A DNA stretch of 10,683 nucleotides from the UHGV virus genome UHGV-0105960; one strand, 5' to 3'. The notes under the pieces were generated by a model, which was not told where the DNA came from, searched no databases, and saw only the letters and a program-made list of their open reading frames with translations. This document shows positions 3,622 through 9,460 of the stretch, in pieces (the stretch's first letter is position 1; each line of letters opens with the position of its first letter). The DNA is from a virus. The translations under genes and the position numbers were made by a program.

Positions 3622-5205
3622 TTAATTCATTGGCGCGTAGCTGATCATCACCGAGTCGGCGAGGTTCGGCGACTTGGTGCCATCAGGCTGTTTATCAACA
3701 ACGATTTTCCCCACGCCATTAATGGAGTAGGTCGGCTGCGACAGCTCAATGATGAGTTTGTCTTTGCTCGCCATGGCGCTGCTGATTGAGATGATTTCGT
3801 CCGGGTTGTAGGCCATGCCCTCAACCACGGCGCGATAGGTGTTCTGGAAAAGCTTGCGTAGCCACCACCAGCTCTGGGCTTTGGCGTTGGCGAAGAAGTC
3901 CTTGTTCAGGCGTGCGGCCTGTCCGTTGTCCCCGCGCACCGCTTCATCGTCCGGATCAAATACCGCGCCGCTACCACGAAACGGTGTGGCGAGTATTGAC
4001 GGTCGGCGCGCTGCGTAACGCAGTTCGTTGATGGCGCGCGCATCGCCGCGAACGCCAGCACCCAGGCCGTCCTCGTCGAAGCGAAACTCTTCGAGGTTGT
4101 CCTGTTCGCAAAAGCCGAAGACCTTCTCAACAGACTGGTAAATGTCGCTGCCAACGCCGGACCATTCACGCACGTTCTCCAGGAGGAAGCCGTGACGGGT
4201 CGAAAAGGCGTTTTTGTCCCGGCCTTCGTCGGCGACGTCCATCGCGCCCAGGCGTTTGCCCGTTGGCTGGATGCCCAGCTTAATATGAGCGTCGACGGCA
4301 GCCTGTACCCAGTCGGACGGGATCAGGACGCCTTCCGCAGATGCGCTGTAGTTCAGGTCAAGTTCCTGCGCTACCACCACCGGATTGTCGATTTTCTCGC
4401 ATTCCCTGCGATACCACTCTTCATCCTTGCGCGGGTCATTTCGCCAGTGGAATGTGAATACCGGTATCTTCCCGCCGTGACGCTTCTGCGCGAACGGGTT
4501 CGCCATGCCGTTAACCGAACTCAGGTCGATACGGCAGCGAGTGGTTTGCGACAGCGCCGCATCAATCAGCAGAGGGCGCTGGAGGAATGCGGCCTCATCC
4601 ACCAGGTAGAGCGTGGTACGGTCACCACGACCAATATTATCGCCAGCCTCGCCTTTGATAACGGCACCAGTTTCAGGAAACTCAACACGCATATATGGCG
4701 CGTGCTTCTTCTCGCTCCACGAACCGCGAAACTCTACAGGTAGTGTTTCCACGAACTTGCGCGCCTTCCAGAACAATGCTTTCGGGTCACCAGTGCTGTC
4801 GACGTATTCCTCTTTACGGGAGCCGAAACCGATAACCATTTCTTTGTTGAAGAGACAAAGCGAGCAGGCCAGTCCGATCGCGGTCCAACTGAGCCCCATT
4901 TCACGGGATTTTTCGGTAATACCATTCTCCCGATTACCCCAGCGTTCCATAATCCAGTGGATCCACTCCTCCTGCTTAGGGAATAGTAAAAACGGAATGG
5001 TCACCGGCAGGCCATAATCAATATTACGCGGGTCCGTTGTCATGCCCCAGTCGATGATGAACTGAGCCGGATTGGTTCGGTAAAACTGTTTTAGTGCAGG
5101 CAATATTTCAGGATTCTGGCGAATGCGCTGTAAGCGTTCCATCCGCCATTCAAAAACCATCTGGTAATCAGGATGTTTAAAATCGAAGGGGAATGGTAAC
5201 GGCAT
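3622..5205 (-). CDS. Terminase large subunit (ATPase/nuclease)
   Basis: 527-aa ORF starting 2 nt after the small terminase stop. Deviant Walker A of the terminase type ([10 protein letters not shown], i.e. KSRxxGxS) and Walker B-like LYLVDEAAF; position between small terminase and portal. Confidence 0.9.
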
Positions 5206-5786: not shown

Positions 5787-5996
5787 ATGTCAAAAAATCC
5801 ACGTACCCCTAAATTTAAAATCGGCGACATTGTTTATTTGGTTTCAGGCGGCCCGGCGATGGCTGTTCAGGAGCCAATCATAAACAGCTTTGATGTTTTT
5901 GTTGGTGATTACTGGTGTCAGTGGTTTTCAGGAAGGAAGCAAGAAAGAGCCAGATTTCCAGAAGAATCACTGACTGCTACCAACCCAAAGCCGTAA
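5787..5996 (+). CDS. Small DUF2158/YodC-like protein (69 aa), opposite-strand moron gene
   Basis: ATG at 5787 with AAGGAAG Shine-Dalgarno at 5776..5782. Motifs GDIVYLVSGGPAMAV and CQWF resemble the DUF2158 signature (GDxVxLKSGGPxMTV ... CxWF). AT-richer than the flanking late genes; strand opposite to the late operon. Confidence 0.65.
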   Translation: MSKNPRTPKFKIGDIVYLVSGGPAMAVQEPIINSFDVFVGDYWCQWFSGRKQERARFPEESLTATNPKP

Positions 5997-6031
5997 ACCC
6001 AAACGCACTCAAGTTGTCTCTTACAGACGTG

Positions 6032-6280
6032 ATGAAGTGGATGATGGCTCAGTTAGAATATGACGGTTGCCTGTATCAGGAAGACGTAGTTGATTATTTA
6101 GTCAAACTCGATAATGAGCAGTTTCTGAAAGAAAATGCTGATGGTAATCTTGTTTTATCTACACCTGTCATTACCCAATTCCGCAAAGTAAGCGGTGATA
6201 AAGTGGTTTGGGTTAAGCCTGAACGATATTGGCGTTATCGCGTTAATGAAGATGAGCCTGGTCGCGAAGCGCGCGGGTAA
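6032..6280 (+). CDS. Hypothetical 83-aa protein, second moron gene (start uncertain; a GTG at 5915 with GGTGA upstream would give 121 aa)
   Basis: Open frame MKWMMAQLEYDGCLYQEDVVDYLVKLDNEQFLKENADGNLVL..., same strand as and 36 nt after the DUF2158 gene, followed by a hairpin plus T-rich tract. No convincing Shine-Dalgarno before ATG 6032. No family recognised. Confidence 0.5.
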   Translation: MKWMMAQLEYDGCLYQEDVVDYLVKLDNEQFLKENADGNLVLSTPVITQFRKVSGDKVVWVKPERYWRYRVNEDEPGREARG

Positions 6281-6406: not shown

Positions 6407-6874
6407 TTACTTCAGGCATTGCGTGGTGATGTATTCCTGCAGGGCTCTCAGGGCTGTTTGGTCGCTGAGGATTCCGGATCGGATACCGAGAACGTTTCGT
6501 CCAGCAACTGCAGAGAGTTCGACGGTGGCATCATCGCCCATGCTGGAGGCGCCGGTGGTTTGGGTTGAGGCTGACACTGGACATTTGCCTTTGACGAGCA
6601 CCCGACCACCATTATCAAGCTTGCGCTGCAGAGCATCATTTTCAGCTTTTGCATCGGCTAATTCCTTCGTGTATTTGGCATCGAGCGCTGCGACGTCTCT
6701 CTGACGGGTCTGCATGTCAGCGATGGTGTCTTTCGCCAGGCTGAGCTGCTCAGTCACTTTATCGCGCTGCCTTTTGAACTCGGTGGCGTTGTCATGGTAG
6801 TGGCTAGCCAACCATCCGAGACTGACTATCAGGCAGATCACAATGGCGCTGATAATGGTAGTTAATCGGCTCAT
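6407..6874 (-). CDS. Rz: Rz i-spanin (inner-membrane spanin subunit)
   Basis: Start ATG at 6874 overlaps the endolysin stop (ATGA). N-terminus [21 protein letters not shown]...[26 protein letters not shown] closely resembles lambda Rz (MSRVTAIISALVICIIV...[26 protein letters not shown]). The ORF-track start at 6892 is a TTG extension. Confidence 0.92.
6448..6654 (-). CDS. Rz1: Rz1 o-spanin (outer-membrane lipoprotein), embedded within Rz in the +1 frame
   Basis: ATG at 6654; [21 protein letters not shown] has a signal peptide and lipobox (VVGC), followed by a Pro-rich segment [16 protein letters not shown]. Similar to lambda Rz1 (MLKLKMMLC...VVVGC...PPPPPAW). Entirely nested inside Rz. Confidence 0.88.
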
Positions 6875-7374
6875 TTCTGCCCCCACAAACAAACTTCACG
6901 CTCAATCTCGCGGCGAGTTACCAGGCCTTTCCACTGCTTGCCCTTGGCGTAAGTCCAGCGGCGCAGCTGGTCGCACGCACCTTTCTGGTCGCCCTGGTTG
7001 ATTTTGCGCAGCAGCGTGGAGGTCTGGAAGTTTCCAGCGCCGACGTTATACGCGAATGAGTACAGAGCCCCGCGCATTATTTCGGGGATCGGCTTCTGGA
7101 TGTATGGGTTAATCTGGCGGGCAACGGTGTTCAGGTCTTTGCTGAGTAGCGCACGGCATTCAGCCTCGGTGTACTTCTTGCCGAGCATGATATCTTTGCC
7201 AGTGTGGCCATAACAGACCGTCCAGACGCCTACCACATCCTGATAAGGAACATATCGCACACCTTCAAGACCATCGTTACCGGTTGGGCCAGTGATGAGC
7301 GCAGAGGCAATGGCTATGGCGCCACCGCCGCCGGCGATCACGCCAATCAGTTTATTCCTCATTGATGGCGTCAT
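6871..7374 (-). CDS. SAR endolysin (phage lysozyme, phage 21 R / P1 Lyz type, GH24-like)
   Basis: N-terminal Gly/Ala-rich weakly hydrophobic segment [25 protein letters not shown] (signal-arrest-release domain), then [25 protein letters not shown] carrying the E-D-T catalytic residues. Near-collinear with recalled phage 21 R. ATG at 7374 with GGGGTGA Shine-Dalgarno aligns with the R21 start; the GTG at 7380 is probably not used. Confidence 0.92.
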
Positions 7375-7376
7375 GC

Positions 7377-7691
7377 TCACCCCTGTGTATCACTTGCGAT
7401 CCGCTTCAAGGCCTCGGTTACCACTTCGGCTGAAGCCGGGCGGTCACCTCCAGGCTTTGCGGAGACATCAGCCAGATAACTGGCCAACAGCTGCGTGCGT
7501 TTTTTCTCTTCATCCAGTCGCTCTCGCTCTTCCTTGCGCTTTGCGTAATACGTCTTGATTGTGAAGAAGGCAGAGATCAGGGCGCCAATGATGAAGACAT
7601 AATCCTGCAGACTCAGGACGGAAAAGATACCAAGCAAGGCTGACCACCAGTAAGGCAGATTGTGACCATCGGTTGGGTTCATACGTTGCAT
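7377..7691 (-). CDS. Holin, class II (two predicted TMDs), with dual-start motif; possible pinholin
   Basis: ATG at 7691 preceded by GGAGGTGA. N-terminus MQRM gives two in-frame starts separated by an Arg (lambda S-like holin/antiholin arrangement). Two hydrophobic helices ([30 protein letters not shown]) and a charged C-terminus. The stop overlaps the endolysin start region. Confidence 0.8.
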
Positions 7692-7799
7692 CTCTCACCT
7701 CCGATAATGTTCGGGGTGCTATCTGTAGTCAGTAAAAGGTTCAGGGCCGTCGGGCTGATTTACCAACAAAGCGTCGAGGGTGATTCCCGCGACCCTGAA

Positions 7800-7826
7800 A
7801 ATAAAAAAGCCTGCGGTTAGGCAGGC
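7800..7826 (-). terminator. Intrinsic terminator (minus strand) between the tRNA pair and the holin
   Basis: Perfect 6-bp GC-rich stem GCCTGC/GCAGGC (7809..7814 / 7821..7826) with a 6-nt loop, followed on the minus strand by UUUUUUAUUUU. Confidence 0.55.
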
Positions 7827-7960
7827 AATAAGCATGAGGGTAATAGCAATGTCGGTGATGACCGAAAATACCCTAGCTGGGTCTGGCGGCCTGTGACGCT
7901 GTTGCAGCAACGCCCCTGATAAGTTGGGGTATGAACCCGTTATCAGGTCAGGCCATTATC

Positions 7961-8037
7961 TGGTGCACCATTCAGGACTCGAACCTGAAACCGATAGCTT
8001 AGAAGGCTATTGCTCTCTCCGGTTGAGCTAATGGCGC
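7961..8037 (-). tRNA. tRNA-Arg (anticodon UCU), CCA-encoded, phage-borne
   Basis: Minus-strand sequence GCGCCAT-TA-GCTC...GAGC-A-ATAGC-CTTCTAA-GCTAT-CGGTT-TCAGG-TTCGAGT-CCTGA-ATGGTGC-A-CCA folds as a canonical cloverleaf: 7-bp acceptor stem (one G-U), anticodon loop C-U-[UCU]-A-A, T-loop TTCGAGT. Differs from host argU as I recall it. Confidence 0.85.
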
Positions 8038-8042
8038 TAATT

Positions 8043-8117
8043 TGGCGGGACAGGAAGGATTCGAACCTTCGACCATTCGGTTAACAGCCGAACGCACAAC
8101 CGCTGTGCTTCTGACCC
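8043..8117 (-). tRNA. Probable tRNA-Asn (anticodon GUU), CCA-encoded; one acceptor-stem mismatch, possibly degenerate
   Basis: Minus-strand sequence GGGTCAG-AA-GCAC-AGCGGTT-GTGC-G-TTCGG-CTGTTAA-CCGAA-TGGTC-GAAGG-TTCGAAT-CCTTC-CTGTCCC-G-CCA: cloverleaf with anticodon loop C-U-[GUU]-A-A and T-loop TTCGAAT, but a T-T mismatch at acceptor pair 4:69. Lies 5 nt from the Arg tRNA. Confidence 0.6.
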
Positions 8118-8654: not shown

Positions 8655-8681
8655 AAAAAAGCCCCGGCGGATTGCCGAGGC
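8655..8681 (-). terminator. Intrinsic terminator (minus strand) about 90 nt downstream of the Q stop
   Basis: On the minus strand: GCCUCGGC-AAUCC-GCCGGGGC hairpin (8 bp with one mismatch) followed by UUUUUU (8660..8655). Confidence 0.5.
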
Positions 8682-8770
8682 TAATTTTACAAACTGGTAT
8701 ATGACTATCATCTTCATGCCGCCACTTAAAGTTAAGGCAGCATATCAAAGTAGACTCAAATATGACGTAT

Positions 8771-9460
8771 TTAATTGACTTTTGCAAGACCCTGCTGCGA
8801 AAAAGTCGCTTTTTGTTGTGATCGTGTTCTCACAGCACAGAGAAGAGAGTCGCTATCAAGCCGCTTAAAAATGGCGCACATAGCCCGCCAGTAATCAGCG
8901 TAGTTATGGCACCAGTTATCAGGCTTAACGCCACACAGGGCTGCAAGGTCCTGGTGCTGATATACATACTTACCCGCCAGCTCTGCTTTCACGTCCTGTG
9001 CCGCCAGCCATATCAGTTTCTTCAGCCGCTCCATCGTCTTGCCGGCCACTTTCTTAGCGCCGAGTTGATCACGGAATTCTTCCCATGCCCACTGTGTTAT
9101 CGCTACCTGATACTCAAAGCGGATATTGTCGCTGTAGTTCCACAGCAACCAGGATTTCTGGTGGTCTTCCAGCGACAGGAGGGCGCGGCGCCAGCTGGCT
9201 GTCGAGTATTCAACGGGCAGAACGAGAGCGATTGAGGAACCCTTAGCGCGGGACTGGCTGCCGCTCATCGGCGGTCCATCCGGGTTAACCATTTTTTGCT
9301 TCACCTCGCTATACACCTTCTTCCGGCCACGGCTGCGCGCCGTAGCGGTAAATTGCGCGTTCTCTGCAAAAGCTACCAGTTGCCCTTTCGTCGCACCACT
9401 CAGATCGGCGGTGGCCACTATCAGCTGCTGGCGAACAAATTCCAAGTATTGAGCTGTCAT
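8771..9460 (-). CDS. Late-gene antitermination protein Q-like (229 aa)
   Basis: ATG at 9460 with GGGAGAAG Shine-Dalgarno. Canonical lambdoid position: after rusA and the ylcG-position ORF, before the terminator/tRNA region and lysis genes. Size resembles the larger Q-like proteins of cryptic E. coli prophages. Family assigned by synteny and recall only. Confidence 0.6.
   Translation of the reverse strand: MTAQYLEFVRQQLIVATADLSGATKGQLVAFAENAQFTATARSRGRKKVYSEVKQKMVNPDGPPMSGSQSRAKGSSIALVLPVEYSTASWRRALLSLEDHQKSWLLWNYSDNIRFEYQVAITQWAWEEFRDQLGAKKVAGKTMERLKKLIWLAAQDVKAELAGKYVYQHQDLAALCGVKPDNWCHNYADYWRAMCAIFKRLDSDSLLCAVRTRSQQKATFSQQGLAKVN

Follow-up and report, generated by a model that had tools for sequence, protein, structure and literature searches.

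The lysis cassette of UHGV-0105960

The virus genome sequence UHGV-0105960 (10,683 nucleotides; the window, hereafter, is this entire stretch) carries the lysis cassette of a lambdoid Klebsiella prophage or phage, laid out as in phage 21. The genes occur in the order antiterminator Q, tRNA genes, holin, signal-arrest-release (SAR) endolysin and Rz/Rz1, all on the minus strand, and the holin and its pairing with the SAR endolysin are the subject of this analysis. The holin gene (7377..7691, minus strand) starts with ATG and codes for 104 amino acids (aa) from Met1, beginning with MQRM, and a shorter form of 101 aa from Met4 (7377..7682, minus strand) is the predicted active holin. The protein matches the PHROG 1350 'holin' profile with an E-value of 2.7e-33 (residues 4-96 on profile positions 1-91 of 97), is 100% identical to a protein labelled 'holin' in Klebsiella phage ST16-OXA48phi5.2 (MK448230) and has 96 homologous clusters; most database copies are named 'hypothetical protein'. 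Because of the profile match, the homologous clusters and the identical annotated protein, the open reading frame (ORF) is assigned to a real gene family rather than to chance. No match was observed in NCBIfam, nor any meaningful match among solved structures.

The endolysin ORF was listed as 7380..6871 with a GTG start (169 aa), the GTG overlapping the holin stop codon (GTGA). The ATG at 7374 (MTPSMRNK...) is the more likely true start, as the alignment with the phage 21 endolysin R21 begins there and it is both the GenBank start of the identical gene and preceded by an AGGGG Shine-Dalgarno sequence five nucleotides upstream. The gene so delimited (6871..7374, minus strand) codes for an R21-like GH24 lysozyme of 167 aa, which matches PF00959 (Phage_lysozyme; 155.6 bits, E 1e-45) and endolysin PHROGs. 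A first-pass annotation of this DNA had described a SAR N-terminus and near-collinearity with phage 21 R, and both are borne out by the alignment with PDB 3HDE (phage 21 R), which runs end to end from residue 1 to 165 (E 4e-91) with 84% identity across 144 aligned residues. The N-terminus includes a 25-residue stretch without charge, within which the SAR domain (residues 9-31; 7282..7350, minus strand) consists to 61% of Gly, Ala, Ser and Thr over 23 residues and aligns with the R21 N-terminal domain in 3HDE. Glu, Asp and Thr, which we take to be the R21 catalytic triad, are conserved in the same alignment. The protein thus combines an uncharged, Gly/Ala-rich N-terminal segment with a lysozyme domain and collinearity with R21, as in R21-type SAR endolysins.

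The i-spanin gene Rz (6407..6874, minus strand) matches PF03245 (E 7e-29, 101 bits) and PHROG 13 (E 2e-66). Its ATG at 6874 overlaps the endolysin stop codon (ATGA) and is a likelier start than the listed TTG at 6892; the counterpart in MK448230 is a 468-nucleotide 'lysis protein' gene. The o-spanin gene Rz1 (6448..6654, minus strand; lipobox VVGC; PF06085 E 3e-19, 69 bits; PHROG 3198 E 5.5e-24) lies wholly inside Rz in the +1 frame, the arrangement of an embedded two-component spanin.

Membrane topology and the C-terminal tail of the holin

Two hydrophobic segments of 15 residues each are found in the holin at residues 14-28 and 31-45, separated only by Gln29-Asp30. The first transmembrane domain (TMD1; residues 14-28; 7608..7652, minus strand) is recognised by hydropathy and corresponds to an AlphaFold2 helix at residues 11-25. 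TMD2 (residues 31-49; 7545..7601, minus strand) is likewise recognised by hydropathy and is the best-modelled part of the AlphaFold2 prediction (predicted local distance difference test score, pLDDT, ~85). That prediction, made with the family alignment, places helices at residues 11-25, 28-77 and 86-102 in a helix-turn-helix arrangement; it is of low confidence (mean pLDDT 64, predicted template modelling score 0.29) and was used for helix boundaries only. The first-pass annotation held that three TMDs would argue against pinholin function. Neither hydropathy nor AlphaFold2 gives a third TMD, there is no hydrophobic stretch beyond residue 49, and the pinholin reading survives this check. The holin is predicted to be of class II, with two TMDs and both termini in the cytoplasm (N-in/C-in), the orientation following from the positive-inside rule.

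In an alignment of 33 homologs of the holin (50-93% identical), G36, S40 and T44 of TMD2 are invariant, and on a helical wheel they form a small and polar helix face together with A37, A41, T47 and Y48. In the register of a weak hhalign alignment, G36 and S40 fall on G40 and S44 of the phage 21 holin S21, residues which we take to be part of the glycine-zipper-like motif in its pinhole-forming helix.

The tail that follows the hydrophobic segments (residues 46-104) comprises 59 residues, 24 of them charged, with a net-positive stretch first. Its distal part, a C-terminal extension (residues 61-104; 7380..7511, minus strand), is present neither in S21 nor in the 67 aa HP1-type holins. The extension bears the motif E61-E-x-K-R-T66-x-L-L, followed by P80 and V90-x-x-E-A, and E61, T66, P80, V90, E93 and A94 are conserved across the family alignment. 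An exhaustive profile search of 1.84 billion representatives gave only 52 clusters at E-values up to 0.001, and the distant holin relatives retain the tail and the EExKRTxLL motif. A 627 aa match from the same search (P0266) is a low-complexity tandem-repeat protein and was rejected as a relative.

Dual start and the upstream RNA hairpin

The sequence M1-Q-R3-M4 has the features of a putative dual start, with two in-frame start codons and a basic residue that would be present in the longer product only. Met4 is nearly invariant in the family and 28 of the 33 homologs begin with Met-x(1-2)-Met with Arg or Lys between the two, in the forms MQRM, MHRM, MYRM, MKM and MRM, among surrounding residues that vary. 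The same forms are present in the S21 and PF16080 (HP1-type) families. In two Pseudescherichia loci ATA replaces the first ATG, nine nucleotides upstream of the called start, which leaves the Met4 start alone and fits with the shorter product being the essential one. The claim of the first-pass annotation that a class II dual-start holin (104 aa, MQRM, long charged tail) stands beside a SAR endolysin is thus upheld, both by the two hydrophobic segments and by the conservation of the dual start.

Immediately upstream of the holin gene, an RNA hairpin (7696..7718, minus strand) of the form CACCCCGA-loop-UCGG(A)GGUG holds the Shine-Dalgarno sequence GGAGGUG (7702-7696) in its 3' arm. The local fold of 7718-7696 has a free energy of -13.2 kcal/mol (z -2.96). 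Across 22 distinct family sequences 84.7% of the cells pair, with CG/GC swaps at two pairs, and the covariation exceeds that of all 500 shuffles and of all slid controls. The Shine-Dalgarno-sequestering hairpin is thus conserved with compensatory changes, and more distant members of the family have hairpins of different sequence in the same place. In phage 21 S and in gene 13 of the Salmonella phage ST104 the Shine-Dalgarno sequence likewise lies within a hairpin, with similar spacing to both starts, and the spacing in the window is close to that in phage 21. The hairpin resembles the sdi element of lambda S.

Relationship to known holin families

Profile comparisons place residues 1-60 of the holin in the superfamily of class II holins to which S21 and the HP1 holin belong, with residues 61-104 as a branch-specific extension. 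The connection runs through an enterobacterial clade of PF16080 (Phage_holin_2_3). Its member gp13 of ST104, which was found through the endolysin and Rz matches to the window, is a protein of 67 aa with an MYRM start that scores 75 bits on PF16080 and falls in phrog_20 together with S21; it shares 40% identity with the window holin over 50 residues (BLASTP, E 3e-8). Of the 33 holin relatives, 31 match PF16080 at E < 0.01. In hhalign comparisons the holin family aligns with the enterobacterial PF16080 clade with 97.5% probability (E 7e-12), collinearly from Met1 to residue 60, and this clade in turn aligns with the S21 family with 96.5% probability (E 9e-10). Weak reciprocal PHROG cross-matches also occur between the holin family and phrog_20. 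The direct sequence link to S21 is too weak by itself and becomes convincing only through the PF16080 clade. The S21 sequence used as query is 100% identical to the phage 21 protein.

The HP1-type holins (PF16080; gp13 of ST104 and PS119, HP1 holin TC 1.E.7.1.2), with which residues 1-60 are collinear, share several features with the window holin. Among them are MxRM dual-start forms and a Shine-Dalgarno-sequestering hairpin, an LSL(Q/N)D turn between two short TMDs, the IIG motif in TMD2 and the YY-KRKE-E-RL pattern after it, and those of enterobacterial phages have an R21-like SAR endolysin encoded directly downstream. The window holin differs from them in having its own PHROG (1350, not 20), in falling below the PF16080 threshold, in a TMD1 richer in Leu, Ile, Phe and Trp and poorer in Gly, and in its conserved extra tail of ~45 residues. 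The HP1 holin itself is without a dual start and behaves as a pinholin (PMC7312051).

Phage 21 (S21-68/S21-71, PF04971) resembles the window in its Q gene, tRNA genes, dual-start holin, SAR endolysin and Rz/Rz1. Both holins have a pair of TMDs, a positively charged residue between the methionines of a Met-x-x-Met start and a small/polar stripe in TMD2, and they are remotely homologous via the PF16080 clade. They differ in TMD1, which is a SAR domain in S21 and not in the window holin, in the loop between the TMDs (two residues in the window holin, ~9 in S21) and in the C-terminal tail (59 residues against 13). In common with the window holin, lambda S105/S107 has a dual start that adds a positive charge (MKM, the lambda S form, also opens some members of the window holin's family) and a similar length (107 aa against 104 aa). 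Lambda S has, however, three TMDs and forms micron-scale holes which release soluble endolysin, and sequence similarity to it was not detected: the holin matches no lambda S-type family in Pfam or PHROG, and neither of the class I features, three TMDs and lambda S homology, is present.

Two related proteins were seen in the course of these comparisons. Klebsiella phage Mulock (1839-2108 of that locus) shares its backbone and, almost unchanged, its SAR endolysin with the window, yet has a different class II holin of 89 aa, which has an MTKM start and an insertion of ~22 residues between the TMD1 region and TMD2 and matches PF16080 and, weakly, PF04971 (Phage_holin_2_1). Protein P0258 has precomputed matches to both PF16080 and PF04971 and so naturally bridges the HP1 and S21 families of holins.

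Pairing of the holin family with SAR endolysins

Pinholins form nanometre-scale holes which depolarise the membrane and through which a folded soluble endolysin or beta-galactosidase cannot pass. Since pinholins are of no use to a cytoplasmic endolysin, a family of them is never expected as the sole holin beside a soluble one. In total 110 loci with homologs of the window holin were gathered from genomes, IMG/VR and phage records, and the downstream gene could be scored in 109. In all 109 this gene codes for a GH24 endolysin whose N-terminal part includes 19-25 consecutive uncharged residues, so that the partner has the SAR-like N-terminus of an exported endolysin throughout. Five SAR groups are represented: R21-like (61 loci, ~89-99% identical to the window enzyme), R21-variant (8 loci, ~67%), 'ITDQEG' (3 loci, 49-56%), Lyz103-like (20 loci, ~27-30%) and P1 Lyz-like (17 loci, ~25-37%). 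At least six switches of endolysin type are apparent on a neighbour-joining tree of the holins, and identical holins occur with two endolysin types.

A background sample was drawn from 80 IMG/VR loci anchored on a Q protein at least 87% identical to that of the window, in 64 of which both lysis genes could be identified. The lysis cassettes below these near-identical Q genes are highly mosaic, with at least seven holin types and at least four endolysin types. Soluble endolysins are encoded in 30 of the 64 cassettes (47%), never together with a window-type holin. All three class II holin types are accompanied exclusively by SAR-type endolysins, namely the S21-type (17 loci), the window type (11 loci) and the Mulock/PF16080-type (6 loci), while the other holins (lambda S-type and three more types, 30 loci) all occur with soluble endolysins of the P22 gp19-like, GH108-like or lambda R-like kinds. 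Fisher's exact test on this sample gives 6e-19 overall and, with the window type taken by itself, 3e-10, and with six independent swaps against the 53% SAR background the chance expectation of an exclusive pairing is ~0.02. The possibility raised in the first-pass annotation, that a canonical holin is combined here with a SAR endolysin by mosaicism, is accordingly disfavoured, the family being found with SAR-type endolysins only in a backbone where soluble ones are common.

Two other comparisons were set aside. The close relatives of lambda S proved not to be diverse (79 scored loci ~99% identical, all with lambda R) and were replaced as a control by the Q-anchored sample, and an analysis of the next ORF in S21 loci was confounded by an extra gene between S and R and was not used quantitatively. 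Many loci of the S21 family have an inserted gene, with a product of 114-116 aa (MTQNYELIVKGIRNFENK...), between those for the S21-type holin and the endolysin.

A proposed pinholin-type lysis mechanism

The cassette probably effects pinholin-type lysis, in which a dual-start class II holin/antiholin depolarises the membrane and so releases a tethered R21-like SAR endolysin. Two products would be made from one mRNA, starting at Met1 and Met4, and the Shine-Dalgarno-sequestering hairpin would influence their amount and possibly their ratio. Both forms would insert as an N-in/C-in hairpin. By analogy with S21-71, the long form is predicted to be the antiholin: its one extra positive charge (Arg3) would hinder the N-terminal rearrangement needed for triggering, the role played by the extra Lys in S21-71 and lambda S107. 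On reaching a critical concentration, the short form would oligomerise into small holes, its contacts made through the small/polar TMD2 face (G36, S40, T44), whereupon the membrane potential would collapse. Depolarisation would free the SAR endolysin from the membrane to refold and degrade the cell wall, and Rz/Rz1 would then fuse the inner and outer membranes. The gene identities, the two-TMD architecture, the conservation of dual start and hairpin, the homology and the exclusive pairing with SAR endolysins are the observed basis of this scheme, from which we infer the size of the holes, the long form's action as antiholin, and whatever TMD1 movement or tail function there may be.

The pinholin reading draws on the evidence for pinholin function in both related families. 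S21, the paradigm pinholin, is reported as such by Park et al. (2007) and by Pang et al. (2009); it is named 'pinholin' in the annotation of OL657228, with both dual-start products annotated from experiment. The HP1 holin kills E. coli without lysis, permits no leakage of beta-galactosidase and has a SAR endolysin partner (PMC7312051). The first-pass annotation had also taken clear homology to a large-hole holin family as an argument against pinholin function; homology is detectable only to holin families with pinholin evidence and to no large-hole family.

Several observations weigh against this reading. Plain similarity to S21 is weak, BLASTP aligning only 28 residues (E 0.003) and family-against-family hhalign reaching a probability of only 9.6%, though collinearly. 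The holin scores 24.9 bits (E 2e-5) on PF16080, below the gathering threshold of 28.8, and gives no match at E-values up to 1 to PF04971 (gathering threshold 26 bits), on which S21 itself scores 122 bits. The statement in the first-pass annotation that the holin is unlike S21 thus holds for plain similarity and gives way at the level of profiles, where the two are linked via the PF16080 clade. The distinct pinholin family that it envisaged is instead, on profile comparison, a long-tailed branch of the superfamily to which S21 belongs. TMD1 is made up of Gly, Ala, Ser and Thr to only 33%, with a mean Kyte-Doolittle hydropathy of 1.5, compared to 63% and 0.2 in TMD1 of S21, and the family mean of 34% compares to 48% in the PF16080 clade. 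On this test, which concerns composition only, TMD1 appears as an ordinary TMD that is not SAR-like, and so gives no grounds to predict its spontaneous exit from the membrane, the key event in the S21 mechanism. Furthermore, ~45 residues of the tail are without a counterpart in S21. Two-TMD holins which release soluble endolysins exist in Gram-positive phages. The sampled loci are related rather than independent, and tight linkage joins the holin gene to the endolysin gene, which it overlaps. For PHROG 1350 members, literature searches turned up no experiments. The HP1 holin has been reported to be C-out when overexpressed (PMC7312051), and mechanisms within the S21/HP1 superfamily may therefore differ.

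The strongest of the competing explanations, although an unlikely one, is that the protein is a canonical large-hole holin with two stable TMDs which is merely linked to SAR endolysins and could release soluble ones too, the SAR enzyme being freed simply because the membrane is holed. The ordinary hydrophobicity of TMD1 and its paucity of Gly, Ala, Ser and Thr would suit such a holin, as would a length of 104 aa with a long charged tail, nearer in size to lambda S than to S21. SAR endolysins, furthermore, function with either type of hole, as observed experimentally for that of N4, so that the combination of a canonical holin with a SAR endolysin is functionally allowed; none was found among the 64 Q-anchored cassettes. 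That SAR endolysins never accompany the other holins indicates that module linkage contributes to the pattern, and the perfect two-way segregation suggests linkage beside function. Against this explanation stand the absence of a third TMD, the homologs, which belong to the S21 and HP1 families rather than to any large-hole family, and the lack of a soluble endolysin in all 109 loci despite at least six swaps against a background in which 47% are soluble.

A single holin product may alternatively be envisaged, which seems rather improbable. The MQRM sequence would then be incidental, the hairpin would only throttle the translation of a toxic protein, and the tail or the level of expression would set the timing without an antiholin. 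The Shine-Dalgarno sequence (GGAGGUGA) is strong, with optimal spacing for Met1 and ~15 nucleotides to Met4, the HP1 holin is without a dual start (PMC7312051) and a single start is called in 35 of the 44 distant relatives with a long tail. The near-invariance of the second Met and the persistence of Met-x-(Arg/Lys)-Met while neighbouring residues change nevertheless favour two products, as do the loci which lack the first ATG and keep the Met4 start. The geometry of the starts is the same in phage 21, where the hairpin is similar and the annotation of both products comes from experiment.

It is about as doubtful that the long-tailed branch, i.e. PHROG 1350 and its distant relatives, departs from a simple copy of S21, with a stable, non-SAR TMD1 and either a conserved ~45-residue tail that acts as a regulatory input to set or delay triggering or both TMDs taking part in an undescribed type of hole. 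In such a role the tail could be compared to the domain of the N4 pinholin gp63 for which regulation has been proposed.

That the protein is some other small membrane protein, with the true holin elsewhere, is highly improbable: most database copies are indeed called 'hypothetical protein' and NCBIfam gives no match, but the gene lies directly upstream of the endolysin gene and overlaps it in every locus, is homologous to proven holins, and has no rival membrane-protein gene between Q and Rz, the sole candidate ORF (7719-7910) being spurious.

Several deposited phage genomes already contain the protein under the label 'holin', and the cassette is otherwise a standard lambdoid lysis module which holds no surprise for the phage-lysis specialist. 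Tying PHROG 1350 to the S21/HP1 class II superfamily provides a defensible functional name for genes mostly called 'hypothetical protein' in prophages of Klebsiella, Salmonella, Enterobacter, Serratia and Yersinia; the window holin falls narrowly short of the Pfam HP1-holin model. As a natural variant which joins a pinholin core to a hydrophobic TMD1 and a conserved cytoplasmic tail, the protein could also serve to probe which features of S21 are truly required for pinholes and timing.

Genomic context of the cassette

The DNA is ~94% identical to temperate phages of Klebsiella pneumoniae. Upstream of the cassette lie genes for YbcO, RusA and antiterminator Q (8771-9460), followed by tRNA-Asn(GTT) (8043-8117) and tRNA-Arg(TCT) (7961-8037), both on the minus strand between the Q gene and the lysis genes. 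Phage 21 has tRNA-Asn and tRNA-Thr at the equivalent position, and related Klebsiella phages have up to four tRNA genes. Just downstream of Q, a sigma-70-like promoter (ATGATA, 16 nucleotides, TAAAAT) is followed after a few bases by a strong terminator-like hairpin (8682-8660; the two together 8660-8711, minus strand), a layout which matches the late promoter pR' and Q-dependent terminator annotated in phage 21. More terminator-like hairpins occur at 8209-8190 and 8152-8127. An intrinsic-terminator-like hairpin with a T run (7799..7826, hairpin 7826-7809, minus strand; GCCTGC-loop-GCAGGC, then TTTTTTATTT) lies between the tRNA genes and the holin gene.

A 63 aa ORF with a hydrophobic stretch (7719-7910, minus strand), just upstream of the holin gene, was considered as a second holin or antiholin and rejected as probably spurious. 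Its hydrophobic part arises by translation of the terminator stem and the T run. Conservation is confined to the 3' part, at the DNA level, the 5' parts being variable; the ORF has in-frame stops in some homologous loci and is missing from 40 of the 110. Some phages have 'hypothetical protein' annotations in this region, including one of 42 aa just upstream of the holin in MK448230.

Past the lysis cassette follow the genes for the small terminase, a 527 aa ORF, the portal and a Mu F-like protein. Two small genes coding for DUF2158 and DUF6953 proteins (5787-5996 and 5915-6280, plus strand) are located between Rz and the small terminase gene, opposed to the flanking late genes, and resemble a moron-type insertion. 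The 527 aa ORF (3622-5205, minus strand) gave no Pfam match at E-values up to 0.001. It is situated directly downstream of the small terminase gene, in the place expected for the large terminase, and its counterpart in a related phage is labelled 'PBSX family terminase large subunit' in GenBank.

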